Shown here piece by piece: positions 10,512 to 40,269 of a stretch of DNA of 64,000 nt (position 1 is its first letter; each line of letters begins with the position of its first letter). Position numbers and translations under genes: made by a program. The DNA is taken from positions 53,028 to 117,027 of the forward strand of contig CAVWLQ010000002.1 of the NCBI GenBank assembly GCA_963755995.1, read 5' to 3'. Under the pieces are notes generated by a model that was not told where the DNA came from, ran no database searches, and saw only the letters and a list, made by a program, of their open reading frames with translations. This DNA comes from an uncultured Chloroflexia bacterium. Its GTDB lineage: Bacteria; Chloroflexota; Limnocylindria; Limnocylindrales; CSP1-4.

Positions 10512-12005
10512 GCCGCGGCTCCCGAGGCGACCGTCGTCTCCTCGAACGCGTCGTGCTTGCCGCGCGACGCGGACACGACGGCACCGAGCAGGCTGGCGAC
10601 GACGCCGACGCCGAACGCGATATGGAGTGCCGTGATGAACGGCTCCATGTCGATGCCGTCGGCGCCGACCTGCGAGCCGGAGAAGATGCGCCAGCAGGAC
10701 GGACGGGTCGACCACGCTCGCGACGAGCCCGATCGACAGCGCGATGCTGATGACGAAGCCCGTCTGGGTCAGCATCATCCGCGTCCCGGCGCCCATGCCG
10801 CGCTGCGCCGGGGGCACGACGCCCATCACGGCGCTCGTGTTCGGCGAGATGAAGAGCCCGGAGCCGGCGCCGATGATCAGCTGCCAGAGGGCGAGCTGCC
10901 AGTACGGGGTGTCGACCTGGATGGTCGTCAGCCCGAAGAGGCCGACGGCAGTGACCAGCATCCCGGCCGTGGCCAGGAGCCGCGACCCGATCCGGTCCGA
11001 GAGCGCGCCGCTGATCGGCGACAGGACGAGCAGCCCGATGGCGAGCGGCGCCAGCATCAGCCCGGCCGTGACCGGGTCGTAGCCGCGCGCGCCCTGCAGG
11101 TAGAAGACGAGGAGGAACAGGACCCCGTTCCGTGCCACGCCGTTGAGCAGCCCGGTCAGGTTGCCGAGCGCGAACAGCCGGTTGCGGAAGAGGCCGAGGT
11201 CGAGCAGCGGCGCGGGATGATGCGCCTCGACCCACAGGAACGCCGGCGCTGCGATGACGAACGCGGCGAACCCGCCGATGACCCACGGCGTCGTCCAGCC
11301 GTAGATGCCACCGAACGCGAGCGCCGAGACGAGCCCGCTCAGGCCGATCAGGTAGAGGAAGCTGCCGGCGACGTCGAACCCGGCCCGCTCCGTGTGGCGG
11401 CCCTGTTCGACGAGCAGCAGCGCGGCGGCGATCGTGCCGACGATGCCGATCGGCACGTTGAACCAGAACACGGTCTGCCAGCCGTAGCTCGTCAGCCAGC
11501 CGCCGAGGATCGGGCCCAGGATCAGGCCGGCCCCGACGACCATGGCGTTGATCCCGAGGGCGCGGCCGAGCTCCCGGCGCGGGAACGCGTCGGTCACCAG
11601 GGCCGCCGAATTGGCCATCAGGAACGCGCCGCCGATGCCCTGGACGAGCCGAGCGACGATGAGGAGGACGGCGCTCGGGGCCAGCGCGCACGCGACCGAT
11701 GCGATCGTGAACAACGCGAAGCCGCCGGTGTATGAGCGTGCTCGGCCGACCTGGTCGGCGATCCGACCCGCGTTCAGGACGAGGACGGTCGCCGCCAGCG
11801 TGTAGCCGACGACGATCCACATCAGGCTGAACAGGTCCGTATGGAGGTCGCGCAGGATCTCCGGCAGCGCGATGACGAGCGTGCCCGAGGTGAGGGCCGC
11901 CAGCAGGGCGCCGACGCTCGTGACCCCCAGCACGATCCAGCGATAGCGGTCGCGCGTCTCGCCGGCGATGGCGTGGAGGCCGGCGCTCGTTCCGGAGCCG
12001 TTCAT
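10508..12005 (-). CDS. DHA2 (EmrB/QacA-like, 14 TM) MFS transporter with a +1 indel near 10690
   Basis: Motifs ARLVQGIGGA, GPILGGWL, WVFWFNVPIG-like, LLDLGLFRN. Removing one base restores IFSGSQ...SGAAA* ending at TGA 10510-10508; the span is 3n+1. Confidence 0.85.
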
Positions 12006-25448: not shown

Positions 25449-25807
25449 CCGCCGGCCTGGGGGTCGCCCGCGTCATCGTCCTCCTGTTCGGCGTGACCAT
25501 GATGCTGGCCGGCCTGGCCACCATCGCCTTCGGCGGCGCGGCCGCCTTCATCACCGGGCTGTGGATCCTCGGCATCGGCATCGCCTGCATCGTCGGCACC
25601 CTGATCGAGCGCGTGCGCTATCGCTCGGACGCCACCGACCGGGACGGGCTGCCGACCGGGAGGGCGGGCGGCGAGCCGCCGGGGACCCGCCTCGAACCCC
25701 GCTTCCGGCGGAGCGACGAGGTCTTCGTCGACCCGACGTCGGGCCACCGGATGCGGGTCTGGCTGGACCCGGCGAATGGCGAACGGCGGTACCTGACCGA
25801 GGATTGA
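25445..25807 (+). CDS. Small membrane protein, hypothetical
   Basis: Two TM helices, ERVRY, C-terminal F..SDEVFVDP.SG..MRVWLDP..GERRY; ATGA overlap. Confidence 0.7.
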   Translation: MTAGLGVARVIVLLFGVTMMLAGLATIAFGGAAAFITGLWILGIGIACIVGTLIERVRYRSDATDRDGLPTGRAGGEPPGTRLEPRFRRSDEVFVDPTSGHRMRVWLDPANGERRYLTED

Positions 25808-25884: not shown

Positions 25885-28062
25885 ATGGCCGCGATCGATC
25901 CCGGCGCACCCGCCCGCCCTGCCGTCGCGCCACGACCCCGTCGCGCCAGCCGCCCGAAGGTCACCTTCCCGTACCTGAACCGCGAGCTGTCCTGGCTCGA
26001 GTTCAATGCCCGCGTCCTGCACGAGGCGCGCGACGAGCGCAACCCGCTGCTCGAACGGGTGAAGTTCCTGGCCATCTTCGCGGGCAACCTCGACGAGTTC
26101 TTCCAGGTGCGGGTCGCCGGCCTGCGCCAGCAGGTGGAGGCGCGCAAGGTCGCCCGCTCGCCGGACGGCCGGACCGCAGACGAGCAGCTGGCGGCGGTGC
26201 GCGAGCGCGTGCTCGGGCTCGTGGCCGACCATTCGGCGATCTTCCTGTCGGTTCGCCGGACTCTGGCCGCCGAGGGCGTGGAGCTGCTCGACTACGCCAG
26301 CATCCCGGAGCATCACGAGGCGCTCCGCCGGCGGTTCCTCGACGAGATCTTCCCCGTCCTGACGCCGCTCGCCGTCGATCCCGGCCATCCGTTCCCGTAC
26401 ATCTCGACCCTCAGCCTCTCGATCGCCGTCGGGCTGCGCGACCCGGAGACCGGCGAGCGCGGCTTCGCCCGGGTCAAGGTCCCGCAGATCCTGCCCCGTC
26501 TGCTCGAGGTCGAGCCGTCCCGCTTCGTCCTGCTCGACCAGGTCATCGAGGCCAACCTCGACGCGCTGTTCAGCGGCATGGAGGTCGAGGAGCACCACCT
26601 CTTCCGGGTCACCCGCAACGCCGACTTCGAGATCGAGGAGGACGAGGCGGACGACCTCCTCCTGGCGATCGAGGAGGAGCTTCGGCGGCGGCGCTTCGGC
26701 GCCGCGGTCCGGCTCGAGGTCGAGCGGTCGATGCCGGCCGCCACCCGAGCCCTGTTGCTGCGCGGCCTGGGGCTCGGCGAGGCCGACTGCTACGAGGTCA
26801 GCGGGATGCTCGACCTGACCGGGCTGTGGGCGATCGCCGACCTCGACCGGCCCGACCTCAAGCCCGTGCCGTGGTCGCCGGTCACCCCGCCCCGGCTGAT
26901 CCCGCCCGACGAGGACGAGCCGGCCGACGTCTTCGCGGCGATCCGGGCGGGCGACATCCTCGTCCACCATCCGTACGAGTCGTTCGCCGCGTCGACCGAG
27001 CGGTTCATCACCCAGGCCGCCAACGATCCCGACGTCCTGACCATCAAGCAGACGCTCTACCGCACCTCGGGCGACTCGCCCATCGTCCAGTCGCTGATCA
27101 GGGCCGCCGAGCGCGGCAAGCAGGTCGTCGTCCTGGTCGAGATCAAGGCCCGCTTCGACGAGGAGGCCAACATCGTCTGGGCGCGCAAGCTGGAGCGTGC
27201 CGGCGCACACGTCGTGTACGGGCTGGTCGGCCTCAAGACGCACTCGAAGACGGCCCTCGTCGTCCGACGCGAGGGGTCCGGCCTGCGGCGCTACGTCCAC
27301 ATCGGGACCGGCAACTACAACCCGAAGACGGCGCGCCTGTACGTGGACCTCGGCCTGCTGACCTGCCGGCCCGAGATCGGCGCGGACGTGACCGACCTGT
27401 TCAACAACCTGACCGGGCTCTCGCGTCAGCGGACGTTCCGCCGGCTGCTCGTCGCGCCGCACAGCCTGCGTCCGCGGTTCCTCGACCTGGTCGATCGCGA
27501 GGTCGGCCATGCGGCGTCCGGACGGCCGGCCCGGATCGTCCTCAAGCTCAACGCGATCGTCGACGTGGCCGTCATCGAGGCGCTGTATCGGGCGTCGAAC
27601 GCGGGCGTCTCGATCGACCTGATCATCCGGGGCGCCTGCTCGATCCAGCCCGGTCTGCCCGGCGTGTCCGAGAACATCCGGGTCCGCTCCATCATCGGCG
27701 AGTTCCTCGAGCATTCGCGGATCTGGAGCTTCGACAACGGCGGCGAGCGCGAGTGGTACATCGGCTCCGCGGACCTGATGGATCGCAACCTGGACCGGCG
27801 GGTGGAGGCGGTCGCCCCCGTCGAGGATTTCGACGCCCAGGTGCGGCTGGCCCAGATCATCGACGTGATGCTCGCCGACGACCGGCGCTCATGGCAGCTC
27901 AAGCCGGATGCCACCTGGGTCCGGACGGAGACCCTCGAGGGACGCGAGGGCACGATCGACACCTTCGAGGTGCTCAAGGAGGATGCATTGGCCAACGGCA
28001 GCGTCGTGACGACCCCCCACCGACCGGCCGCCGGCGCCGGCTCGCTGGACCCGCGCGCGTGA
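25885..28062 (+). CDS. ppk1: Polyphosphate kinase 1
   Basis: NRELSWLEFNARV, NLDEFFQVRVAGL, HHPYESF (phospho-His), KQTLYRTS, KARFDEE, GTGNYN, FLEHSRI, SADLMDRNLDRRVE. Confidence 0.97.
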   Translation: MAAIDPGAPARPAVAPRPRRASRPKVTFPYLNRELSWLEFNARVLHEARDERNPLLERVKFLAIFAGNLDEFFQVRVAGLRQQVEARKVARSPDGRTADEQLAAVRERVLGLVADHSAIFLSVRRTLAAEGVELLDYASIPEHHEALRRRFLDEIFPVLTPLAVDPGHPFPYISTLSLSIAVGLRDPETGERGFARVKVPQILPRLLEVEPSRFVLLDQVIEANLDALFSGMEVEEHHLFRVTRNADFEIEEDEADDLLLAIEEELRRRRFGAAVRLEVERSMPAATRALLLRGLGLGEADCYEVSGMLDLTGLWAIADLDRPDLKPVPWSPVTPPRLIPPDEDEPADVFAAIRAGDILVHHPYESFAASTERFITQAANDPDVLTIKQTLYRTSGDSPIVQSLIRAAERGKQVVVLVEIKARFDEEANIVWARKLERAGAHVVYGLVGLKTHSKTALVVRREGSGLRRYVHIGTGNYNPKTARLYVDLGLLTCRPEIGADVTDLFNNLTGLSRQRTFRRLLVAPHSLRPRFLDLVDREVGHAASGRPARIVLKLNAIVDVAVIEALYRASNAGVSIDLIIRGACSIQPGLPGVSENIRVRSIIGEFLEHSRIWSFDNGGEREWYIGSADLMDRNLDRRVEAVAPVEDFDAQVRLAQIIDVMLADDRRSWQLKPDATWVRTETLEGREGTIDTFEVLKEDALANGSVVTTPHRPAAGAGSLDPRA

Positions 28063-29843
28063 GCGCAGCCGTCGAGCGCCCCGTCGAGGTCGAGCTCAAG
28101 TACCGGGTCGTCGACCTCGCCGTCGCCGAGCGCTACCTGGTGGCCGAGGAGATCGGCTCATTCAGCGGCACCGCCGCGCCGCGCTCGTCGCAGCTCGAGG
28201 ACCGCTACGTCGACACTGCGGACGGGGCGATGACCCGGGCCGGGTTCGCCGTCCGGTTGCGGCGCTCGGGAAAGGGCACGATCGTGTCGGTCAAGTCTCT
28301 CGCCCGGACGGACGGTCCGGGTGGCTCGGTCCGGCGCGAAGAGCTCGAAGGTCCGGCAGACCGGACGGCCGGGCCGCTCGACTGGCCCGCGTCGGACGCC
28401 CGCTCGCTCGTCCTCGAGCTGGCCGGCGACGCACCGCTGGTGGAGCTCGTGACCATCCGGCAGCTGCGACGCAAGCGGGTCGTCCGCGACGGCGACACGC
28501 GGGTCGAGCTGAGCCTCGACGAGGTCGACGTCGTGTCGCGCTCCCGCGTCGTCGACCGGTTCGTGGAGCTCGAGGCGGAGCTGGTCCGCGGCGCCGAGGA
28601 GCGGCTGACCTCCCTGGCCGACGTCTTCGCCGCGGATCATGCCCTGGCGCCCGCCAGCGGCAGCAAGTTCGAGGCGGCGATGGAAGCGGTCCGAACGGGC
28701 TCGCGCCGGCGCCGCGGTGGATCCGCCGCCGGGGCGGAGGACGAGGTCGCCGAGCAGCCCGACGACGCCGAAGACCGCGAGACCGAGGCCGAGGCCACGT
28801 CCGCCGAGCCCGCGTCCGCCGAGCACGAGCCGATCGGCGCCGTCGCGACCACGTCCGACGTCGTCGACGAGGCGATCGAGGAGGCGACGAGCCAGGACGC
28901 GCGCCTCGTTGTCGGTCGGAACCCCGGGGTGACCGCCGACGACCACGTGGCCGAGGCCGGCCGCAAGGTCATGCGCTTCCACCTCGCCCGGATGCTCGCC
29001 CGTGAGGCCGGCACCCGCGAGGGGTCGGACCCCGAGGATCTCCACGCGATGCGCGTCGCCACCCGCCGCCAGCGCGCCGCCTGGCGCGTCTTCGGGGCGT
29101 CGTTCCGGCCGGCCCGCACGAAGCGCTACCGCAATGGCCTGCGCGAGATCGCGTCACGGCTCGGTGCGGTTCGCGACCTCGACGTGCTGCTCGAGGCGGC
29201 CGACCTGTACCGGGCGGACCTGCCGGTCAGCGAGCAGCGCGCGATCGAGCCGCTCCTGTCCGACTGGCGCGAGCACCGTGACGACGCGCGCGTCCTGCTC
29301 ATCCGCGAGCTGGACTCGGACGGCTACCGGCGGTGGGTCGACGACTACCGCGATTTCGTCCGGACCGAGGGCGCTGCGGTGGTCCCGGTCCTGCCGACCC
29401 AGCCGCACCGGGTCCGAGACACCGCCGGTTCCCGGATCTGGACCGCCTACGAGCAGATGCGCGGCTACGAGCCCGTCCTGCGCTGGGCGGACGTCGAGAC
29501 GCTCCACGAGCTGCGGATCGCCGGCAAGTGGCTGCGCTACACGCTCGAGTTCGTGCGCGAGGCGCTCGGCGATGACGCGGCGCCGCTGATCGCCCGCGTG
29601 ACCGCCCTTCAGGACCACCTGGGCCTGATGAACGACGCGGACGTGTCGGCGTCGATGGCCCGGACGTTCCTCGTCGAGCACGCGGGCGACCTGTCCGGTC
29701 TCGAGAGCGCGGCCATCGGGCGCTACCTGATCAGCCGCGAGCGCGAGGTCGCCCGGTTGCGGCGGAGCATCGGGGCACCGTGGCGCGGCGTGGCCGGTGT
29801 CACGTTCCGGCGGACGCTCGGGCGGGTCGTCGCCAAGCTGTAA
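28059..29843 (+). CDS. CYTH (triphosphate tunnel) plus CHAD domain protein with acidic linker
   Basis: EVELKY (ExExK) and ELEAEL in CYTH; LHAMRVATRRQR, LGAVRDLDV, LHELRIAGKWLRY, LQDHLGLMND in CHAD; GTGA overlap with ppk1. Confidence 0.92.
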   Translation: MSAAVERPVEVELKYRVVDLAVAERYLVAEEIGSFSGTAAPRSSQLEDRYVDTADGAMTRAGFAVRLRRSGKGTIVSVKSLARTDGPGGSVRREELEGPADRTAGPLDWPASDARSLVLELAGDAPLVELVTIRQLRRKRVVRDGDTRVELSLDEVDVVSRSRVVDRFVELEAELVRGAEERLTSLADVFAADHALAPASGSKFEAAMEAVRTGSRRRRGGSAAGAEDEVAEQPDDAEDRETEAEATSAEPASAEHEPIGAVATTSDVVDEAIEEATSQDARLVVGRNPGVTADDHVAEAGRKVMRFHLARMLAREAGTREGSDPEDLHAMRVATRRQRAAWRVFGASFRPARTKRYRNGLREIASRLGAVRDLDVLLEAADLYRADLPVSEQRAIEPLLSDWREHRDDARVLLIRELDSDGYRRWVDDYRDFVRTEGAAVVPVLPTQPHRVRDTAGSRIWTAYEQMRGYEPVLRWADVETLHELRIAGKWLRYTLEFVREALGDDAAPLIARVTALQDHLGLMNDADVSASMARTFLVEHAGDLSGLESAAIGRYLISREREVARLRRSIGAPWRGVAGVTFRRTLGRVVAKL

Positions 29844-29858
29844 TCGCGATCCGCCGCC

Positions 29859-30791
29859 CTAGGCTCGCCAGCCGTGGGCCAGGTCCACGAGGCTGTCCCG
29901 CCACGCCGGGCCGGCATGATCAACGGCGAGGATCGCGCCCTCCCGGACGCCGGCCTCCGAGACGCGGAGCCGATCCGCGCCGTACGTCTCGAGGATCGCG
30001 TCCACGATCGCCGCGCCGGCCGGCAGGATCCGGGCGCGGATGGGATTGATCAGGTGCCGTTCGGACGCGATCGCCGCCGGCTCGGCGGCGAGGATCGCCA
30101 GCACCTCCGCGATCCGCTCGCGCGTGAGGGTTCGATCGAGCATCGCGGCAGGGAGCACCTTGAGCAGGTTCGACGCGGTGCCACCGACCGCGACGATCTC
30201 GCTGGGGTGGGCCGCCGGGGCGCCGGCGATGACCTCGCGGGCCGCGGCATGCATCGCGGCGACCTCGGCGGGCGTCGCCGGATCGTGCGTGACGAACCGG
30301 TCGCTGAGTCGGGCGGACCCAAGCTGGAGACCCGTCGCTCGCGGACGGTGGGTCGGGTCGACGATGCAGAACTCGCAGCTGCCGCCGCCGACGTCGATCA
30401 CGAGGGTCTCCTGGGTGACCGGCATGCCCTCGGTGACGCCGATGATGGTCAGGTACGCCTCCTCGGCATGAGTCAGGACGTGGACCGGCGCCCCGGCCGC
30501 GGCGAACACCTCCCGGACGACCGCGGCCGCGTCGGCGGCCCGGCGGATCGGCTCGGTGCCGAGGAACGTGATGCCGGTCGCGCCGAGGCGAGCGGCCGTG
30601 TCCGCGTATCGGACGAGAACGGCCGTCAGCTCGCCGCGGCGGGCACGACCCAGGTAGCCGCGCTCGTCGACGGCCGTGCCGAGACCGAGGAAGACCGACT
30701 CGTCGACCAGCGGCTGGAGCCGGTGGCCGGCGACGACGGCGGCAACGAGATGGACCGAGTTGGACCCGATGTCGACCGCCGCGCCGACCAC
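29859..30791 (-). CDS. ppx: Ppx/GppA exopolyphosphatase, short form without HD domain
   Basis: DIGSNSVHL, TEPIRRA, EEAYL, DVGGGSCE, GGTASNL, GVREG. Start uncertain (GTG chosen). Confidence 0.85.
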   Translation of the reverse strand: MVGAAVDIGSNSVHLVAAVVAGHRLQPLVDESVFLGLGTAVDERGYLGRARRGELTAVLVRYADTAARLGATGITFLGTEPIRRAADAAAVVREVFAAAGAPVHVLTHAEEAYLTIIGVTEGMPVTQETLVIDVGGGSCEFCIVDPTHRPRATGLQLGSARLSDRFVTHDPATPAEVAAMHAAAREVIAGAPAAHPSEIVAVGGTASNLLKVLPAAMLDRTLTRERIAEVLAILAAEPAAIASERHLINPIRARILPAGAAIVDAILETYGADRLRVSEAGVREGAILAVDHAGPAWRDSLVDLAHGWRA

Positions 30792-30840
30792 GGGGCCGGG
30801 CGTGAGGGACGGGTCGACGGTCGCCTGGGTCGTGATGTCG

Positions 30841-31974
30841 TCAGGAGGGGGCGTCGTCGGGACCAGCGGAGGCCGGACGAAGGGACCTCCGCGCTGGCGA
30901 TCGGGTCGTGGATCGAGGGGTGGCCGGCTTGCTGGTCGGCGTCTTGGGCTTGGCGGCGGTCGATGCCGGCTTCCCGGCGGCCGGCGCCCGCTTGGCCGTC
31001 GACCGCGTGCGGGTCGCTGCGGGCTTGCGGGTCGTGGCAGGTTTGGCGGCCGCCTTCGCCGGCGTCCCGGTCGTTGCGGGCTTGGTGGTCGCTGTCCTGG
31101 CGGTCGGGGGCTTCGCGGCAGAGGCAGGCTTGCGAGCGGTGGTGGTCCGTCGTGCGGGGGCCGGCTTCGCGGATGCGACGGGCGTCGAGGGTGTGGTCCC
31201 TGCAGGCGTCCTGGCGGGGGCCGCTGCCGTCGTCGTCGCGACTGCTGCCGGCGTGGCGGCGGTCGCCGCGGTTGCGGGTGTCGCCGCGGTCGTCGGCTTC
31301 GCCGCGGTCGCCGGCTTCGCGGCGGTCGTCCGCTTCGCGGGTGACGTCGGCTTCCGGGCAGTCGCCGGCTTGCGCGGCGACGCAGATGCCGGGGCCTTCG
31401 ACGCGGCCGATGCTGGCGTCGCGGCCGTTGGAGCCGCGGTCGCGGCCCTCGAAGCGGCAGGTGCACGCCGGGTCGTCGCCGGCTTCCGCGTGCTCGCGGA
31501 TCGAGTCGCTCGCGCGGCGGTCGCCCGTTTCGTCCGCCGCGTCGTGGCTCGCGGGGTGGTGGCCCGCGGGGTGGTGGCGCGCGGCGCCGGCGCGGGCGCA
31601 GGTGCCAACGTCGCGGTCGCAGTCGGCGGTGCAGCCGTGACCGCGGCCGATCCGGCTGCCTCGGCTGCGGCCCGTTGCAGCTTGGCCGCCAGCGACGAGA
31701 CCTCCTTGGCCGCCTCGGTGGCCTGACGCGTTCGCTTCCCGACCTGCTTGCGGCCCTTGGTCGCCTCGGCTGCCTGCAATTGCCGGAGACGCTTCGCCTC
31801 GGTCTTGCGCGCGGCAGCGAGCTTCTTCTCGAGCTTGTGCAGCTCCTTCGCCGTGCGACCGGACACCGGGGTCACGGTGCCGTCGGCGTCGACGATGACA
31901 TCGGTGACGGTCTCGACGCCGCCCCCGCGCGGTCCTTCGGCCCGTTTCGACGGCTTGTCGCCTCGCTTGGCCAT
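30841..31974 (-). CDS. Basic Lys/Arg/Ala/Pro/Thr-rich low-complexity protein (histone H1/AlgP-like tail after a coiled coil)
   Basis: GGAGG RBS; N-terminal helical/coiled-coil region, then repeats RATTP x3, AAKPAT, RKPA; lies in an operon between the metallophosphoesterase and ppx. Confidence 0.7.
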   Translation of the reverse strand: MAKRGDKPSKRAEGPRGGGVETVTDVIVDADGTVTPVSGRTAKELHKLEKKLAAARKTEAKRLRQLQAAEATKGRKQVGKRTRQATEAAKEVSSLAAKLQRAAAEAAGSAAVTAAPPTATATLAPAPAPAPRATTPRATTPRATTRRTKRATAARATRSASTRKPATTRRAPAASRAATAAPTAATPASAASKAPASASPRKPATARKPTSPAKRTTAAKPATAAKPTTAATPATAATAATPAAVATTTAAAPARTPAGTTPSTPVASAKPAPARRTTTARKPASAAKPPTARTATTKPATTGTPAKAAAKPATTRKPAATRTRSTAKRAPAAGKPASTAAKPKTPTSKPATPRSTTRSPARRSLRPASAGPDDAPS

Positions 31975-31990
31975 GCGGATCGACCTCCGT

Positions 31991-32866
31991 TCAGCGGCGC
32001 GCGATGCGCGCACCCTCGTAGAGCAGCGTGGGCCGGCCGGTCGACACGGACCGTCGCCAGATCGCAAGTCTGCCATGTTCGTCGAGGATCTCGAGATAGC
32101 TGGCGTCACGCCGTCCGTCGTTGACGAGCGCCCCGGCGCTGGCGATGACGACCGTCCCGCGGCCGTCGGACAGCTGCCAGGCGTTGGCCCGGTGGATGTG
32201 GCCGTGGAGGGCGAGGTCCACCTCGAGGTCGGTCAGGAGGGCCAGCACGTCGCCCGAGCGATGGGTCAGGTCACCGTCGCGGAGCTTCCGGCCCGGGACC
32301 GGCAACAGGCCGTGGTGCAGCGCGAAGATCCGCAGCGCCCCCGGCCGGGCGCGGCGCAGCTCCCGAGCAGCGCGCTCCAGCGATTCGGACCGGAGCCGCG
32401 GCGTCGAGTTGACCGCGACGACGTGGACGTCGGTGCCCCGATGCCCACCGGCGAGACTCCCGAACCGCGCGATCCAGGCCTCCTCCGGGTCGTCGCCACT
32501 GGAGGCGTCACCGTCCCCGATCTCGCGTCCCGTCTCGTCGAACCCGAGCGTCAGCGCGGGCTCGAGCGCCAGGAAATAGTCGAGATCCGAATCGACCGGC
32601 AACGGTCGCGCGTCGCCGGGTGGTCCGACCGACCGCTCGAGGTCGCGATTGCCGGGGATGACGACGCGCGGGATCGAGCCGAAGCGCGCCAGCTCGGCCG
32701 CGACCTCGTCGAGCTCGGACGGACGGCCGTCGGCCGACAGGTCGCCGGTGACGACGACGAGGTCGGGCGCGCGTGCGAGAGCCGAGTCCACGAGCGAGCG
32801 CAGGGCGCGCCGCAGCTCGGGCGAGCCATCGAAGTGGAAGTCGGAGAGGTGGACGATCCGGGTCAT
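31991..32866 (-). CDS. Calcineurin-like metallophosphoesterase
   Basis: SDFH, TGDL, PGNRD, LHH, HGHIH metal-binding motifs. Confidence 0.88.
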   Translation of the reverse strand: MTRIVHLSDFHFDGSPELRRALRSLVDSALARAPDLVVVTGDLSADGRPSELDEVAAELARFGSIPRVVIPGNRDLERSVGPPGDARPLPVDSDLDYFLALEPALTLGFDETGREIGDGDASSGDDPEEAWIARFGSLAGGHRGTDVHVVAVNSTPRLRSESLERAARELRRARPGALRIFALHHGLLPVPGRKLRDGDLTHRSGDVLALLTDLEVDLALHGHIHRANAWQLSDGRGTVVIASAGALVNDGRRDASYLEILDEHGRLAIWRRSVSTGRPTLLYEGARIARR

Positions 32867-33573
32867 GCGGACACCGGCTGGCCGGCTCGCCCACCCGGCC
32901 GTGCGTCGGCGCGCGCGGCCAGGACCGAATCCGCCGCCCGGAGCACGCGCTGGCCGACCTGCTCGATCGGGTCGGCTGCGCGGATGCGGGTGAAGCCACC
33001 GGGACCCGCATACCGGTCGAAACAGGCGTAGAGGCGCCCGGCGAACAGCCGGTAGCTCTCGCGCAGGTCTGCCGACAGCCCGACGTCGAGACCTGCCTCG
33101 TACGGATCCGGATCGTCGACGTGTCGGGCCAGGGACGCCTCGGCGTCGACGTCGAGGAACAGCACGGCGTCCGGCGCCGGCACGAACGCGAACAGGGCAT
33201 CGAGCCAGGCGCCGTCCACGCCGCGGGCCTCGGCTCGCGCCATCGGGGTCCAGCAGTACCGGTCGGCGAGCACGACGAGACCGGCGCGCAGGGCGGGCAT
33301 GACCACCTGCTCGACGCGCTCGGCCAGGTCCGCGGCGTAGAGGAGCGCCGTCTCGGTCGGGTCCGCCTCGCGATCGCGTTTCGCGCGTCGGATCCGATCC
33401 CCGCTCAGGAGCGAGCTTGCGAGCGACGTCCGGGCGACGCCCCGACCGGCATAGCGCAGGTGTTCGTCGAGGCGTCGGAGATGGGTCGAGCGGCCCGACC
33501 GGTCGATCCCCTCGAGGACGAACAGCACACCGGGCTGGCCGTGGGCGCCGGGCCGGGCAGACGGCGTCGTCAT
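32863..33573 (-). CDS. Thymidylate-kinase-like P-loop protein (B)
   Basis: EGIDRSGRST P-loop variant, LLYAAD, VLADRY, PDAVLFLDV, YEAGLD.GLS motif. Confidence 0.8.
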   Translation of the reverse strand: MTTPSARPGAHGQPGVLFVLEGIDRSGRSTHLRRLDEHLRYAGRGVARTSLASSLLSGDRIRRAKRDREADPTETALLYAADLAERVEQVVMPALRAGLVVLADRYCWTPMARAEARGVDGAWLDALFAFVPAPDAVLFLDVDAEASLARHVDDPDPYEAGLDVGLSADLRESYRLFAGRLYACFDRYAGPGGFTRIRAADPIEQVGQRVLRAADSVLAARADARPGGRAGQPVSA

Positions 33574-33578
33574 GGTCC

Positions 33579-34262
33579 TCACCGGCCGGCGGGCATCCGC
33601 GGCGTCCCCGGCCGCCTCGGGCCCCCGGAACGGCCGACGGTCGGCGCGGTCAGCATCGGCCGGATGGCCTCTCGGATCGTGGCGACGCGGACACCGGGAT
33701 CGGTCCGTGGATCGATGACGAGGGCGTCCACCGGCCACGGCTCGGTCGCCCCATCCTCCAGCAATCCCTCGTAGGCGGCCATCAGGCGTTCCAGGAACGC
33801 GGCATAGGCCAGCGCCACTGCCTCGCCGCGGGCGGCGGACGGTCGCGTCGCGATCGCGCGGGCCAAGGCGGCCGCCGGTTCCTGGCGATGGAACAGAACG
33901 AGGTCCGGGCGCGGCGCGAACCGGTACAGGGACGCGATCCAGGCCGGGTCGAGGCCGCGCGCCACCTCGCGGGCAACGGCGGTCCAGACATAGCGGTCGG
34001 CCAGCACGACGTCGCCGCGGGCCAGCGGCCGCTCGATCTCCACCGCGATCCGGCGAGCGGCCTCCGACGCAGCCAGCAGGGCCGCGACCCGGGGCGTGAG
34101 AGCCTGCCGTCCACCCGGCATGCCGGCGGCGCGGGCCACCACGCGCGAGGGTCGCCATGTCACCAGGTGGACGCGGCGACCCTTCCGCTCCAGCCACCGC
34201 GCGACGCCGTCGAGACCGGCCGACTTGCCGGATCCATCCAGGCCCTCGGCCGCGATCAACAC
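33579..34262 (-). CDS. Thymidylate-kinase-like P-loop protein (A)
   Basis: AEGLDGSGKS P-loop, VLADRYVWT..AR..ARG, PDLVL. Confidence 0.8.
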   Translation of the reverse strand: MLIAAEGLDGSGKSAGLDGVARWLERKGRRVHLVTWRPSRVVARAAGMPGGRQALTPRVAALLAASEAARRIAVEIERPLARGDVVLADRYVWTAVAREVARGLDPAWIASLYRFAPRPDLVLFHRQEPAAALARAIATRPSAARGEAVALAYAAFLERLMAAYEGLLEDGATEPWPVDALVIDPRTDPGVRVATIREAIRPMLTAPTVGRSGGPRRPGTPRMPAGR

Positions 34263-34802: not shown

Positions 34803-34894
34803 GACGGGCCGCGATGGTGTCCTCGTCAAGTGAAAGGAACCGCAATGTCCCAGAACCGCCGTGCCCCAGCGGCGGCCACGAGGAGGATCATCGA

Positions 34895-36073
34895 GTGATC
34901 ACGACCCCCAGGCGCCTCGGTGCGCTCACGCTGATCGCGGCAATCGGCCTGAGCGCCTGCTCGAGCAGCGCCGCCTCGACGTCGCCCGCCGCGTCAGTCG
35001 CGGCCCCGACCACGGCGACCAGCCTGGCGCCCTCGACCGGCGACGCATCGGCCGGCCCGAGCATGGCGGCAGCACCGGTGCCGCCGTCGGCCTCGATCAC
35101 GCTCCAGGGCGCGGGCGCCACCTTCCCGGCACCGCTCTACGACAGCTGGTTCCAGGCATTCAACGGCGTCTACCCGAACGTCCAGATCGACTACCAGGCC
35201 AACGGCTCGGGGGCGGGCATCAAGGCCATCACAGAGGGGACCGTCGACTTCGGCGCTTCCGACGCAGCGATGAAGGACGAGGAGATCGCGGCCCTGCCAT
35301 CCGGCGCCAAGATGCTCCACTTTCCCACCGCCCTTGGCGCGGTGGTGATGATCTACAACCTGCCGGACACGCCCAAGCTCCAGCTCGACTCGGCCAACAT
35401 CGCCGGGATCTACCTGGGCACGATCAAGAAGTGGAACGACCCCGCCATCGCGGCCAATAACGCGGGCGTGACACTGCCTGACCTGGACATCCTCGTCGTC
35501 CACCGCTCGGACGGCTCGGGGACGACCAACGCCTTCACGACCTACCTCGACACGGTCGACCCCACCTGGCACTCGACCGTGGGCAAGGGCAAGGAGGTCA
35601 AGTGGCCCACAGGTATCGGCGCGGCCGGAAACGACGGCGTCGCGACCGCGGTCAAGCAGACGCCGGGCGCGGTCGGATACGTCGAGCTGAACTATGCATC
35701 GGCCACGAAGCTGACTTCTGCCTACGTCAAGAATGCGGACGGGGCCTTCGTGCCCGGCTCGACCGACGGTGTCACGGCCGCTGCCGAGGCAGCCCTCGCG
35801 GACTTCCCCGCCGACTTCCGCCAGGCCCCGATCATCAACGGCGCCGGTGCGGACACCTACCCGATCGCCTCGTACACGTACCTGCTCGTCTACCAGGATC
35901 AGGCGAACGCGGACAAGGGCCAGACGCTCGTCTCGTTCTTGTACTGGGCGCTGACCGACGGTCAGGCGACGGAAGCCTCGCTGGGGTACGCGCCTCTACC
36001 CAAGGAAGTCCAGGAGAAGGCGCTGACCGAGCTCCACCTCGTCACGACCGGCGGCTCGCCGATCTGGCCCTGA
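34895..36073 (+). CDS. pstS: Phosphate ABC transporter substrate-binding lipoprotein
   Basis: AGGAGG RBS; lipobox LSAC; GAGATFPAPLY, GSGAGI, DFGASD, HRSDGSGTT, YPIASYTY. Confidence 0.96.
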   Translation: MITTPRRLGALTLIAAIGLSACSSSAASTSPAASVAAPTTATSLAPSTGDASAGPSMAAAPVPPSASITLQGAGATFPAPLYDSWFQAFNGVYPNVQIDYQANGSGAGIKAITEGTVDFGASDAAMKDEEIAALPSGAKMLHFPTALGAVVMIYNLPDTPKLQLDSANIAGIYLGTIKKWNDPAIAANNAGVTLPDLDILVVHRSDGSGTTNAFTTYLDTVDPTWHSTVGKGKEVKWPTGIGAAGNDGVATAVKQTPGAVGYVELNYASATKLTSAYVKNADGAFVPGSTDGVTAAAEAALADFPADFRQAPIINGAGADTYPIASYTYLLVYQDQANADKGQTLVSFLYWALTDGQATEASLGYAPLPKEVQEKALTELHLVTTGGSPIWP

Positions 36074-36098
36074 CCTCCATCGCAGGTCGAGCGATCGA

Positions 36099-36137
36099 CG
36101 ATGTGGGTGCCCCGATCGGGTCGGGCACTCCACATCG
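36099..36137 (+). terminator. Imperfect stem-loop between pstS and pstC (partial terminator or mRNA stabiliser)
   Basis: CGATGTGG-GTGCCC...GGGCAC-TCCACATCG; typical position after a binding-protein gene. Confidence 0.5.
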
Positions 36138-36185
36138 GCTTGAGCCGAACGCTACCCTCGACAGACCGATGACAGGCAGGGATCG

Positions 36186-37139
36186 ATGACCCATTTGACG
36201 CTCGTCGCGCGCTCTCGCCAGGGGACCGGGCAGCTGGCGGATCGCGCCTTCCGCGGCTCGACCCGGTTCGCGGCGGGGACGGTCGGCGCGCTCCTGATCC
36301 TGATCGCGCTGCTTCTGATCTGGAACTCCCGTCTGACCTGGCAGACCTTCGGCCTGGCCTTCATCACCGGCGAGGTGTGGGATCCGGTCGCGGGCATCTA
36401 CGGGGCACTGCCGTTCATCGTCGGCACCGTCCTCTCGTCGCTCCTGGCGATCGCCATCGCGGCCCCCATCGGCATCTTCACCGCGATCTACCTCTCGGAG
36501 CTGGCGCCGGGTCGGGTGGCCACGCCGCTGACCTTCATGATCGAGCTGCTTGCCGCGATCCCGAGCGTCGTCATCGGCCTGTGGGGCGTCTTCATCCTGG
36601 CCCCCTTCCTGCGCGGAACGGTCGAGGCGTGGATCGTGTCGGTCTTCGGCTGGATCCCGTTCCTGGGTGGTCCGACCTACGGCATCGGCCTGTTCAGCGC
36701 AGGAGTGATCCTCACGATCATGGTCCTGCCGACCGTCGTCACCATCTCGCGCGAGGTCATCCAGGCGGTCCCAGGCTCGCAACGTGAGGCGATGTTCGCG
36801 CTCGGCGCGACACGTTGGGAGACGATCCGGCGGGCGGTGGTCCCGTATGCGAGGTCGGGAATCATCGGGGCGGTCATCCTCGGGCTTGGCCGGGCGCTCG
36901 GCGAGACGATGGCGGTGACGATGATCATCGGCAACAAGGACGCGATCCCGACCTCGTTGTTCGACCAGACCCAGACGATCGCCTCGAAGATCGCCACGAC
37001 CTTCAACGAGGCGCCGGCCGGGCTGCCGACCTCCAGCCTGATCGCCCTGGGGCTGATCCTGCTGGTCGTGACCGTGATCATGAACGTGGTCGCCCGCCTG
37101 CTCGTGTGGCGGGTCGCCGGTCCCGTGGGAGGCGACTGA
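36186..37139 (+). CDS. pstC: Phosphate ABC transporter permease
   Basis: [34 protein letters not shown]. Confidence 0.95.
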
Positions 37140-38020
37140 TGGCCGCCGCGAACCCGGCCCTGGTCAGCCGCCTCACCGCGACCGGCTCACACGGCCGCCG
37201 GCTGTGGGTCGACCGCGGCATGCGCACGGTGGCGCTCCTGGCGGCGCTGGCCTGCGTCATCCCGCTCGCCGCAGTGCTCATCTTCGTGACCATCAACGGC
37301 CTGGCCGCCCTCAACCTGGACCTGCTGACCAAGCCGTCGCGAGCCCAGGGCATCGGCGGTGGCGCATACGGGGCAATCCTCGGCACGATCCAGATGGTCG
37401 GCCTCGCCACGCTCATCGCGATCCCCTTCGGCGTCCTGGCCGGGATCTACGTCAACGAGTTCAGCTCGCAGCGCGCCGCCCGCGGCGTACGGTTCGCGGC
37501 GGACGTCCTCGTCGGGGTGCCGTCGATCCTGATCGGGATCTTCGTCTATACATTCCTCGTCCAGCCGTTCAAGCAGTACAACGCGTTCGCCGGCAGCGTC
37601 GCCCTGGCCGTGATCATGGTGCCGGTCATCATGCGCACGACCGAGGAGATCCTGAAGCTCGTCCCCGGCTCGCTCCGCGAGGCCTCCCTGGCGCTCGGGA
37701 TCCCGACCTGGCGGACCGTCCTGTCCGTCGCCGTCCGGACGGGGCTGCCCGGCATCCTGACCGGGATCATGCTCGCCGTCGCCCGGGCGGCCGGCGAGAC
37801 CGCGCCGCTGCTGTTCACGGCCCTCGGCAGCCGGCTCGTGAACGTCGGCGACTTCTCGAAGCCGATGGATGCCCTGCCCTTGTTCATCTTCGTCAACGCC
37901 CGGCAGCCGTACGAGCTGCAGAACCAGCAGGCCTGGGGTGCGGCGTTCCTGCTCTTGCTGTTCGTCCTCGTCGTCAACGTCCTCGTCCGCTTCCGGACCG
38001 CGGGACAGCGAGCCCGATGA
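37139..38020 (+). CDS. pstA: Phosphate ABC transporter permease
   Basis: [29 protein letters not shown]; TGATG overlap. Confidence 0.95.
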
Positions 38021-38937
38021 AGGAGCCCGATCCCGTGACCACCCAGCTGCGCGACCCATCTCCCAGGCCACCGGAGACGAAGGCCGACCCTTCGCCCGTG
38101 CAGGCCATGGCAGCGACCCGGACGGATGCGTCGGCGGCGCTATCGACCGGTACGGTCGAGCAAGCCTCGGGCCGGATCGACATCGACGGGCTGCACGTCT
38201 ACTACGGCGCCTTTCGAGCTGTGCGGGACATTTCTCTGACCGTCCAGCCGCATGCGATCACGGCGATCATCGGACCGTCCGGTTGCGGCAAGTCGACGTT
38301 CCTGCGAACCCTCAACCGGATGCACGAGCTGACTCCCGAGACGCGCGTCGAGGGATCCGTTCGGCTGGACGGCGAGGACATCTATGGCTCGGCGATCGAC
38401 CCGGTGGCACTGCGGCGGGTCGTCGGCATGGTCTTCCAACGGCCCAACCCGTTTCCCACGATGTCGATCTACGACAACGTCATCGCCGGGCTCCGGCTGA
38501 CCGGCCGGCCGAAGACTTCCACCTATGACGAAGTGGTCGAGCGATGTCTCCGTCGGGCCGCGCTGTGGGACGAGGTCAAGGACAAGCTCCGCCAGGGCGG
38601 CACGTCGCTGTCGGGTGGCCAGCAGCAGCGACTGTGCATCGCGCGGGCCCTCGCAGTCGACCCCGAGGTCATCCTGATGGACGAGCCGGCGTCCGCGCTG
38701 GACCCGGTCGCCACGCTCCGGATCGAGGAGCTGATGGCCGAGCTGCGCTCGAACTACACCATCGTGATCGTCACTCACAACATGCAGCAGGCCTCGCGGA
38801 TCAGCGACTACACGGCGTTCTTCACGATGGGTCCGGACCGGGCGGGCTACCTGGTCGAGATGGACCAGACCGTCCAGATCTTCACCAACCCGAGCCAGCA
38901 GCTGACCGAGGACTACGTCTCCGGCCGGTTCGGTTGA
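38017..38937 (+). CDS. pstB: Phosphate ABC transporter ATPase
   Basis: [47 protein letters not shown]-terminus. Confidence 0.96.
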
Positions 38938-38950
38938 ACCGAGGTCGACG

Positions 38951-39721
38951 ATGACCGACGACCATCTGACGGGAGATACGATGATGGACGCCCAGATCGA
39001 GGCGCTGATGACCGATTCCCGCAACACCGAGGCGCATCCGGACCTGTCGCGGCCGGGTGGCTCGGCTCCCCGCGAGGCGCTGGACCGCGAAGAGCAGTTG
39101 ATCCGCGACTCCGTGCTCAGGATGGGCGCCCTCGTCGAGGCGGCGATCCGGGAGGCGTCCCGAGCCCTGGTCGCGCACGACCCGGCGCTCGCGCTGGACG
39201 TCATCAAGGGTGACGCGATCATCAACGAGGCCCAGCGAGGAGTCTCGCGTCTGATCGCGGTCACCATCGCAACTCAGCAACCGGTGGCGCGCGACCTGCG
39301 CTACCTCCTCACCCTGGACCATGTGACGTACGAGCTGGAACGGATGGGCGACCACGCGGCATCGGTCGCCAAGGCGGCGATCAAGCTGGCTCCTGAGCCG
39401 CCACTCGAACACCACATCCACCTGCCCGAGATGGCAGAGCGTTCGGCGGTCCTCGTCCACGGCGTCCTGAGGGCACTGATCGAATCGGACGCGATCAAGG
39501 CCCGTGAGATCGCGGTCGAGGACGACGAGATCGACCGGCTCTACCACGCCACCTTCGACGAGGTCGTGGAGTTGATGCGTCAGGACCCGGCCAATGTGGA
39601 GCGCGGCACCCGGATCATCATCGCCTCGCACTACCTGGAGCGGATCGGCGACCGGGCGACGAACATCGCCGAGGACGTCGTCTACCTCGTGACGGGAGAC
39701 GTCGAAGACCTCAACCCGTGA
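38951..39721 (+). CDS. phoU: Phosphate signalling/transport regulator
   Basis: QQPVARDLR, ELERMGDHA, LERIGDRATNIAE duplicated motifs. Confidence 0.95.
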   Translation: MTDDHLTGDTMMDAQIEALMTDSRNTEAHPDLSRPGGSAPREALDREEQLIRDSVLRMGALVEAAIREASRALVAHDPALALDVIKGDAIINEAQRGVSRLIAVTIATQQPVARDLRYLLTLDHVTYELERMGDHAASVAKAAIKLAPEPPLEHHIHLPEMAERSAVLVHGVLRALIESDAIKAREIAVEDDEIDRLYHATFDEVVELMRQDPANVERGTRIIIASHYLERIGDRATNIAEDVVYLVTGDVEDLNP

Positions 39722-39783
39722 CCGGGCCGGCGGGTGGCCGGGGCAGGCCCGCTCGCGCGTCGAACCGCTACCCTAGCGGGGTC

Positions 39784-40269
39784 GTGACCGATCTCTCGTT
39801 CCTCCGCCATGCGCACGCCGGCGACCGCCTCACCTGGCAAGGCCCCGACGAGAACCGGCCGCTCTCGGACAAGGGCGAGCGCCAGGCCGAGCGCCTGGGA
39901 GCGTTCCTTGCCGGCGTCAAGTTCTCGCCGGACGTCTTCATCACGTCGCCCAAGGTCCGTGCGGCGCGCACCGCGGAGATCGTCGCCGGCCACCTGGGCA
40001 CGCCCGTCACGGTCGACGACCGGCTCGCCAGCCCTTTCGACCTCCCGACCCTCGAGCGGATCCTTGTCGACGCCGGTGATCCCGCCCGGCCCGTGATCGT
40101 CGGTCACGACCCCGACTTCAGCGAGCTCCTCGCGCTCCTGTCGGGCACCGCGGACCTGCCGATGCGCAAGGGCGCGTTCGCGCTGGTCGATGTCGAGCGC
40201 CCGCTGTCCGCCGGCGCCGGAACGCTCCGCTGGCTGGTCCCGCCTGACCTGCTGAAACCCGAGCGCTGA
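39784..40269 (+). CDS. sixA: SixA-like histidine phosphatase
   Basis: LRHAHA, RPLSDKG, TSPKVRA..TA, VGHDP, LRWLVPP. Alternative start at GTG 39718. Confidence 0.85.
   Translation: MTDLSFLRHAHAGDRLTWQGPDENRPLSDKGERQAERLGAFLAGVKFSPDVFITSPKVRAARTAEIVAGHLGTPVTVDDRLASPFDLPTLERILVDAGDPARPVIVGHDPDFSELLALLSGTADLPMRKGAFALVDVERPLSAGAGTLRWLVPPDLLKPER

Follow-up and report, generated by a model that had tools for sequence, protein, structure and literature searches.

Two adjacent thymidylate-kinase-fold proteins in a Chloroflexota polyphosphate locus that probably form a bacterial family-3 polyphosphate kinase

Introduction

The question raised by this locus is what two neighbouring genes for proteins of the thymidylate kinase (TMK) fold are doing at the head of an operon concerned with polyphosphate (polyP). 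The stretch that we analysed, referred to here as the window, is 64,000 nucleotides of DNA from an uncultured Chloroflexia bacterium (assembly GCA_963755995.1, contig CAVWLQ010000002.1, positions 53,028 to 117,027 of the forward strand), and the two genes, A and B, lie side by side on its minus strand. A first-pass annotation made from the letters alone had described tandem TMK-fold paralogs at 32863-34262, one with the Walker A sequence GLDGSGKS and the other with GIDRSGRST, in which Arg stands in place of the P-loop Lys, and both open reading frames are indeed found there. It had further proposed that the pair is not housekeeping thymidylate (dTMP) kinase but either uses polyP or pyrophosphate as phosphate donor or acts as a sensor. 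We consider it likely that a bacterial family-3 polyphosphate kinase (PPK3) has A and B as its two subunits. Placed in this way, the pair is a new member of an already published enzyme family, in a bacterial (Chloroflexota) host.

PPK3 was described by Hofmann et al. (J Biol Chem 2026, PMC12995831; preprint 10.1101/2024.08.28.610084). The adjacent genes saci_2019 and saci_2020 of S. acidocaldarius, both annotated as dTMP kinases, sit alongside ppx, sixA and a gene for a CHAD protein in one operon, and their products form a heteromeric alpha2beta2 reversible polyphosphate kinase in which Saci_2019 (cPPK3) is catalytic and Saci_2020 (rPPK3) is inactive yet stimulatory (PMC12995831). Neither protein phosphorylates dTMP, and the Sulfolobus reaction favours the direction in which ADP and polyP yield ATP (PMC12995831). 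The S. tokodaii protein STK_15430 (PDB 2plr/5h70) is a cPPK3 homologue, and in the two archaeal rPPK3 subunits that were aligned, Saci_2020 and STK_15420, the DRX motif has no Arg; for the catalytic subunit a polyP cleft of conserved positive charge is described (PMC12995831). The PPK3 clade consists mostly of bacterial dTMP kinase paralogs from genomes with a canonical tmk elsewhere, although the family is described as mainly crenarchaeal plus "a few bacteria"; the majority of PPK3 genomes have neither PPK1 nor PPK2, and SixA is a regular partner in the operons (PMC12995831). Of the first 22 Chloroflexota rows in the PPK1/2/3 presence table, 1 has PPK3 scored as present (PMC12995831). The earlier idea of a polyP-linked pair outside the housekeeping kinases matches an enzyme that is already published, namely two dTMP kinase paralogs working as a heteromeric ATP:polyP kinase (PMC12995831).

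Relation of A and B to a characterised polyphosphate kinase

Gene A (33579-34262, minus strand, GTG start) encodes 227 amino acids and gene B (32863-33573, minus strand, ATG start) encodes 236, and both proteins belong to Pfam family PF02223. We take A as the Lys-type (cPPK3-like) and B as the Arg-type PPK3 subunit. The A protein has the N-terminus VLIAAEGLDGSGKS, with K13 in the Walker A motif GLDGSGKS and R90 in the DRY of LADRYVWT, while B, which holds LEGIDRSGRSTH, has R28 in GIDRSGRST and R105 in the DRY of LADRYCWT. The TGA stop of A is followed after 5 nucleotides by the ATG of B, with GAGGA just upstream of this start, and the TGA of B overlaps the ATG of the next gene, a metallophosphoesterase (ATGA); A and B are translationally coupled paralogs of the thymidylate kinase fold. 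R28 is invariant in all 29 aligned orthologues of B, so the Walker A Arg is not a sequence error. The lid of B is intact (PDPYEAGLDVGLS). That of A is deleted, leaving a gap of 10 columns in the alignment at the YEAGxD segment, and A also lacks the EWNSS...GKKK segment typical of Lys-type subunits, which is replaced in the alignment. At the position of the Tmk motif REPG, A reads VTWRPSR (WRPS) and B reads ARTSLASS (RTSL); REPGG is absent from both, and alignment against canonical Tmk shows the dTMP-binding residues (EP motif) kept in neither, in agreement with the earlier remark that the pair has retained DRY and lost REPG. The single-chain AlphaFold2 models have a pLDDT (predicted local distance difference test) of 89.5 for A and 92.5 for B. 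Both genes are under purifying selection when compared with loci L018-L022, with a ratio of nonsynonymous to synonymous divergence (dN/dS) of 0.11-0.27 for A and 0.06-0.15 for B, and in the same comparison the dN of A is about twice that of B.

The closest protein of known structure is the same for both. In a phmmer search of the PDB the best match was STK_15430 (2plr/5h70), at 79.4 bits for A (the next, Thermus Tmk, at 40.5) and 83.9 bits for B (next 62.2), and for a less diverged pair from Melainabacteria (L037) the figures were 203.7 versus 58.5 bits for the Lys type and 162.1 versus 52.2 for the Arg type. Foldseek agreed, since the top 8 PDB matches of A and the top 8 of B were all chains of this protein (st1543), with TM-scores of 0.68-0.89 depending on the chain length used to normalise. 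STK_15430/st1543 of Sulfurisphaera tokodaii (PDB 2plr, 4nzy, 4rzx, 5h70) is thus the best match of A and B in sequence and in fold, and it has the motifs EGIDGSGKS, EWNSS and YEAGxD in common with the Lys-type subunits of other phyla. Its identity to A and B is only about 28-31%, and unlike it A has no lid and B no Walker Lys.

The arrangement also resembles that of the S. acidocaldarius enzyme. In both cases adjacent paralogs of the dTMP kinase fold share one operon with ppx, have lost the EP residues and show damage to a catalytic motif in one of the two subunits, while the genome encodes a canonical tmk at another site. For A and B a heteromer is predicted. The likeness extends in part to CHAD and SixA, which are encoded here in the same island but outside the A/B operon. 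By analogy with this characterised homologue, from which we infer the activity, a heteromer of A and B would bind ATP or ADP at a P-loop, with polyP taking the place once used by dTMP, and would interconvert ATP + polyP(n) and ADP + polyP(n+1). Its probable role would be the regeneration of ATP from polyP supplied by the adjacent PPK1, with the Ppx, CHAD and phosphoesterase proteins presumably acting on the same polymer.

Association of the two proteins

In four relatives (L031, L032, L033 and L040) A and B are fused in a single open reading frame of about 500 amino acids, and the fusion is also seen in the metagenomic proteins P0047, P0125 and P0130. The complex model that the first-pass annotation had suggested backs binding of A to B, with a median interface score (ipSAE) of 0.89 over 3 runs against 0.00 for the best control. 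In the calibration of this score 116 solved complexes out of 157 reached the mark, compared with 2 mismatched pairs out of 215, and these counts are only a rough guide here as our own alignments were used. The runs agreed in at least 73% of contacts, with a partner pLDDT of at least 86. The modelled heterodimer has its interface at residues 41-73 and 107-115 of A and at 54-89 and 120-130 of B. An A-B heteromer is predicted by this model.

Conservation and phylogeny of the pair

To see how far the pair extends we scanned GTDB, each species represented by a single genome, with patterns that contained GRST. This gave more than 601 pattern matches, at least 268 of them confirmed, and 80 loci were kept. 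Their labels cover about nine bacterial phyla: Chloroflexota (mostly Limnocylindria/Limnocylindrales), Cyanobacteriota (Melainabacteria-type), Planctomycetota and Acidobacteriota, and further Verrucomicrobiota, Omnitrophota, Sumerlaeota, Dormibacterota and Eisenbacteria. An Arg-type protein is paired with a second subunit in 76 of the 80, this other subunit carrying the Walker A Lys and rarely Thr or Arg. The Lys and Arg combination (an EG[IVL]DGSGK[ST] protein with an EGxDxxGR[ST] protein) accounts for 69 loci, Thr with Arg for 5 and Arg with Arg for 2, both of them Thermomicrobiales pairs; in the remaining 4 the Arg-type Walker A alone is readable, and in at least 3 of these a contig end removes the partner or its Walker A. 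Within the genus of the window, a query with B found the pair to be patchy, in G000 and G023 only of 25 genomes, several of which are incomplete.

An exhaustive hmmsearch of 1.84 billion representatives with a profile of the Arg type gave 33,755 proteins with E <= 1e-3, canonical Tmk included, 15,368 with E <= 1e-10 and 675 clusters at 50% identity with E <= 1e-30. We surveyed the Walker A residue in 149 of the 150 best proteins, of which 95 had a single P-loop and at most 330 amino acids. In these 95 the residue was most often Arg (51) or Lys (39), and otherwise Cys (3), Asn (1) or Gly (1). Such a preference for Arg over other replacements would fit retained phosphate binding better than decay.

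The genes around the pair were counted within the DNA retrieved around each of the 80 loci. Ppx was near the pair in 44 (17/17 Limnocylindria-like loci and 27/61 from other phyla) and CHAD in 24, while PPK1 was found in 14 and a metallophosphoesterase in 19, these last two in Chloroflexota only. A Pfam scan, which covered 90 of the 119 open reading frames selected in 12 sampled loci, confirmed a polyP neighbourhood in 5 of the 12. A sixth, L049 of Verrucomicrobiota, has a ROK-family kinase at 10658-11644 directly after the pair, and polyphosphate glucokinases belong to this family; in the remaining six no phosphate genes were found by Pfam among the scanned frames. The gene orders, with K and R for the two subunit types, vary from PPK2, K, R, Ppx, SixA, CHAD in L077 to R, CHAD, Ppx, K in L043. 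In L063 the order is SixA, Ppx, K, R, response regulator, kinase, in L065 it is SixA, Ppx, K, R, response regulator, and in L045 the pair stands between PPK1 and phosphoesterase on one side and CHAD, phosphoesterase and CYTH on the other.

The phylogeny was estimated with IQ-TREE under the posterior mean site frequency (PMSF) model from 63 rows, made up of 58 pair members and 5 canonical Tmk of the same order. In this tree, for which the first-pass annotation had proposed a comparison with Tmk, the pair members split from canonical Tmk, at a support of 100/100. The A protein groups within the clade of Lys-type (cPPK3-like) subunits, at a support of 99/92, and its stem measures 2.38 substitutions per site. 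Forcing all the Arg-type subunits into one clade, a group named post hoc, cost 7.5 log-likelihood units and was not rejected by the approximately unbiased test (p-AU 0.244). In a FastTree reconstruction of 171 sequences neither of the two Limnocylindria clades fell within the Lys or the Arg clade; we take this as a long-branch artefact and did not retain it, A having moved into the Lys clade under PMSF.

Weighing the PPK3 assignment

Several points weigh against the assignment. Membership of PPK3 is argued from homology and context, and the activity is a predicted one. The PMSF tree contains no experimental PPK3 anchor, as Saci_2019, Saci_2020 and STK_15420 are not among its rows, so that B is best called a candidate orthologue of rPPK3. 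When rooted, the tree places the B clade basally, outside the Lys and Arg clades of the other phyla. The helices at the modelled interface are the usual dimerisation helices of TMK-family proteins, of which many dimers have been solved, and the passing of the model may thus reflect likeness to these rather than specificity for the heteromer. The Arg in the 80 loci is present by construction, given that GRST was part of the search patterns. In the DNA retrieved, both Ppx and CHAD are missing from 33 of the 61 loci that belong to other phyla. The source genome has a PPK1 gene 4 kb from the pair, at the same locus, and two PPK2 genes, unlike most of the published PPK3 genomes, which have neither (PMC12995831).

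The subunits themselves also depart from the published ones. DRY is kept in both A and B, and the signature published for rPPK3 is thus not found in B. This holds for the Arg type in general, since DR[YFW] is kept in 83 of 83 Arg-type sequences of the loci and in 49 of 51 Arg-type proteins among the best hmmsearch matches. Among the same matches it is missing in 6 of 39 Lys-type proteins, which may be of the archaeal style. The lesion of the second subunit here is the exchange of the Walker A Lys for Arg instead of the loss of the Arg of DRX that marks archaeal rPPK3. Furthermore, the Walker Lys is replaced by Thr in the A subunits of 5 of 16 readable relatives, and by Arg in both Thermomicrobiales A subunits. 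Together with the lidless A of the window, these replacements mean that a Lys-dependent catalytic site is not universal in the phylum. The fused Limnocylindria-like genes (L031, L032, L033 and L040) have no Walker A Lys in either P-loop, which read GT[AGD] and GRS, and the Thermomicrobiales loci L034 and L045 read GRA and GRS. In L040 the first domain has DHY in place of DRY.

By analogy with the Sulfolobus enzyme the Lys-type A would be catalytic and the Arg-type B regulatory. This mapping is uncertain in the present lineage because, unlike the archaeal catalytic subunit, A is lidless and evolves faster, at about twice the rate of B, whereas B, with lid and DRY both retained, is the more conserved of the two. 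It is conceivable, though we think it rather doubtful, that the roles have shifted in Chloroflexota, so that B, with its lid, its DRY and its slower evolution, has become the functional core and A is decaying to a scaffold. In that case the Walker A Arg might support phosphoryl transfer to or from polyP, or a composite site might be formed by the P-loop of A and the lid of B. If true, this would be an unusual mechanism for a P-loop kinase, and it would account for Arg as the replacement of Lys throughout the family.

The same features could also be read with A and B as a pair of pseudokinases, a non- or weakly catalytic module of this Chloroflexota lineage that binds polyP or nucleotide and regulates or scaffolds PPK1, Ppx and the phosphoesterase. 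The Arg in every B orthologue, the lost lid of A and the seven loci with no Walker Lys at all (5 Thr with Arg and 2 Arg with Arg) would be expected of such a module, and PPK1 and the two PPK2 genes already supply polyP kinase activity. The prevalence of Arg among the non-Lys residues of the Walker A survey, which speaks for phosphate binding that is kept and not for random decay, is also compatible with it. We nevertheless judge this reading to be improbable. In the window A retains GKS and DRY, B retains its lid as well as DRY, purifying selection acts on both genes, and the Lys and Arg combination is the norm in phyla that have no PPK1 nearby. In the characterised PPK3, too, one of the subunits is inactive, and the enzyme is a kinase nonetheless (PMC12995831).

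A further alternative is that the pair is a P-loop kinase with another acceptor or donor, for instance a polyP- or ATP-dependent kinase of nucleoside monophosphates, nucleoside diphosphates, deoxynucleoside monophosphates or a small molecule, whose link to polyP would be indirect. The replacement of the nucleotide-monophosphate site residues of Tmk in A and B leaves room for this, as do the relatives that carry NUDIX, pyrophosphatase or APH/DUF2252 kinase-like domains in fusion and the other-phyla loci in which Ppx and CHAD are both missing nearby. Set against this, the nearest relative that has been characterised acts as a polyP kinase and showed no dTMP kinase activity (PMC12995831), Ppx and CHAD recur across the loci at the frequencies given above and the operon of the window itself ends in ppx, which makes a different substrate very unlikely in our estimation.

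The assignment to PPK3 thus remains the one that we favour, and it supports the earlier proposal in part. The link to polyP is supported, while the suggestion of a sensor survives no further than the minority reading of a pseudokinase pair, and nothing was found for or against pyrophosphate as the donor.

Separation from thymidylate kinase and PPK2

Both proteins match the Pfam family Thymidylate_kin (cut-off 27 bits), A at 62.4 bits and B at 77.5 bits. They fail the dTMP kinase equivalog NCBIfam TIGR00041 (cut-off 83.25), at 59.3 and 78.8 respectively. Three matches to PF02223 were found in the source genome (7 contigs, 72.6% complete), namely A, B and one on another contig. The last is the canonical tmk whose presence elsewhere the first-pass annotation had proposed to check; it lies at G000:C4:228376-228942, reaches 150.1 bits and reads GPEGAGKT...TREPGGT. 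Canonical Tmk is similar to A and B in fold, in the position of the P-loop and in the DRY motif of the pair, and differs in that A and B lack REPGG, score under the equivalog cut-off and form a separate clade in a genome that has its own Tmk.

The canonical Tmk of the genus is itself somewhat unusual. Where the usual Tmk motif is DRF it reads CARF[AVS]DS, the Asp of the DRx motif being Ala, in 8 of 8 genomes checked (L001 1459-2145; L098-L104). In 6 of these 8 the A/B pair was not found with B as query, and CARF is thus best seen as a lineage trait of a working housekeeping Tmk and not as a sign that A and B have taken over its function. That A or B, or both, should be ordinary ATP:dTMP kinases, redundant copies of the housekeeping enzyme, is hardly credible: the Pfam match, the label 'dTMP kinase' that JGI gives to the orthologues and the Ala of the genome's own Tmk might suggest it, but both proteins fall under the equivalog cut-off, lack REPGG and split from canonical Tmk in the tree, that Tmk persists where no pair was detected, and the Sulfolobus homologues are without dTMP kinase activity (PMC12995831).

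The first-pass annotation had also drawn the pair towards PPK2, and in the sense of family membership this does not hold. The PPK2 profile PF03976 gave no match to A or B at E <= 0.01, and two true PPK2 genes (319 and 259 bits) are found elsewhere in the source genome. What the two families have in common is that they are P-loop kinases acting on polyP, and that an active unit is joined to an inactive paralogous one, as in the two-domain class II PPK2. PPK3 has been likened to class II PPK2 with its inactive N-terminal domain, and the ADP and polyP sites of PPK3 are swapped relative to PPK2 (PMC12995831).

Implications for annotation and future experiments

If the assignment is correct, A and B of the source genome should be annotated as polyphosphate genes and not as thymidylate kinases. 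Databases still label such PPK3-like proteins as dTMP kinase. At least 268 species-level genomes with a confirmed relative, and the 675 clusters with E <= 1e-30, suggest that PPK3 is apparently far wider among uncultured bacteria than was thought. The presence of PPK3 beside PPK1 at one locus bears on the proposal that one has replaced the other in situ (PMC12995831). The Lys/Arg dichotomy and the lineages without a Walker Lys offer handles on the workings of the second subunit, and the subunit-level differences from published PPK3 are worth a bench test.

The polyphosphate island and its neighbouring genes

The pair heads a minus-strand operon of A, B, metallophosphoesterase, basic protein and Ppx, and this operon sits in a polyphosphate and phosphate island with PPK1, CYTH-CHAD, PstSCAB, PhoU and SixA. 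The metallophosphoesterase (31991-32866, minus strand, 291 amino acids, Pfam Metallophos 62 bits), whose gene is translationally coupled to B, was found in 17/17 Limnocylindria-like and 2/2 Thermomicrobiales loci (L018-L033, L040, L034, L045) and in 0/61 of the other phyla. Its function is difficult to narrow down: the best match in a PDB sequence search was only 23.6 bits, with no close characterised relative, it was far under every NCBIfam cut-off, and the ESM Atlas returned Chloroflexota Metallophos clusters only. An anti-phage role was considered and rejected, as at 54 bits the match to the DS9 model falls short of its cut-off of 420.

Between the phosphoesterase and ppx lies a basic low-complexity open reading frame (30841-31974, minus strand, 377 amino acids; Ala 29%, Thr 18%, Pro 12%, Arg and Lys together 20%) which matched no Pfam family. 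A phmmer search found its N-terminal 125 amino acids again in L018-L023, where they occupy the same position, and, weakly, in L029. The protein resembles histone-H1/AlgP-like proteins, which associate with polyP granules, and it may be a granule protein. The presence of this gene and of the metallophosphoesterase within the operon sets the locus apart from that of S. acidocaldarius, and neither is named among the PPK3-associated genes in the available parts of Tables S2 and S3 of the PPK3 publication (PMC12995831).

The operon is closed by the Ppx/GppA exopolyphosphatase (29859-30860, minus strand, start approximate; Pfam Ppx-GppA 132.1 bits). Beyond it, on the plus strand, are the CYTH-CHAD protein (28059-29843; Pfam CHAD, a polyphosphate-binding domain, 172 bits and CYTH 46.5 bits) and PPK1 (25960-28062), in which all four domains are matched (PP_kinase_N, PP_kinase middle, C_1 and C) and whose open reading frame opens at 25561. 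On the other side of the pair the plus strand carries the phosphate uptake genes pstS-pstC-pstA-pstB-phoU (34814-39721) as context. PhoU (38951-39721) is confirmed by Pfam at 130.5 bits, and the other four we take to be PstS, PstC, PstA and PstB from their translations read by eye. They are followed by a SixA-like histidine phosphatase (39718-40269, plus strand; Pfam His_Phos_1 53.7 bits) that overlaps the end of phoU. The same Pfam family also stands beside the pair in L077, L063 and L065, and in other phyla a histidine phosphatase of the SixA type tends to replace the metallophosphoesterase near the pair.

The hmmsearch relatives also include a number of fusions (P0123-P0271). Two TMK-like domains are joined to a Ppx domain III/HD in P0124, P0126 and P0138, relatives of the pair are fused to NUDIX in P0232, P0257, P0259 and P0264 and to inorganic pyrophosphatase in P0184, P0212 and P0224, and an MFS transporter is combined with a TMK-like and an APH/DUF2252 kinase-like domain in P0173, P0200, P0203, P0209, P0215 and P0233. 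P0189 consists of SPX, TMK-like and DUF2252 domains. The SPX and MFS forms are presumably eukaryotic, judging from their appearance, and might point to polyP enzymes that have so far gone unrecognised.

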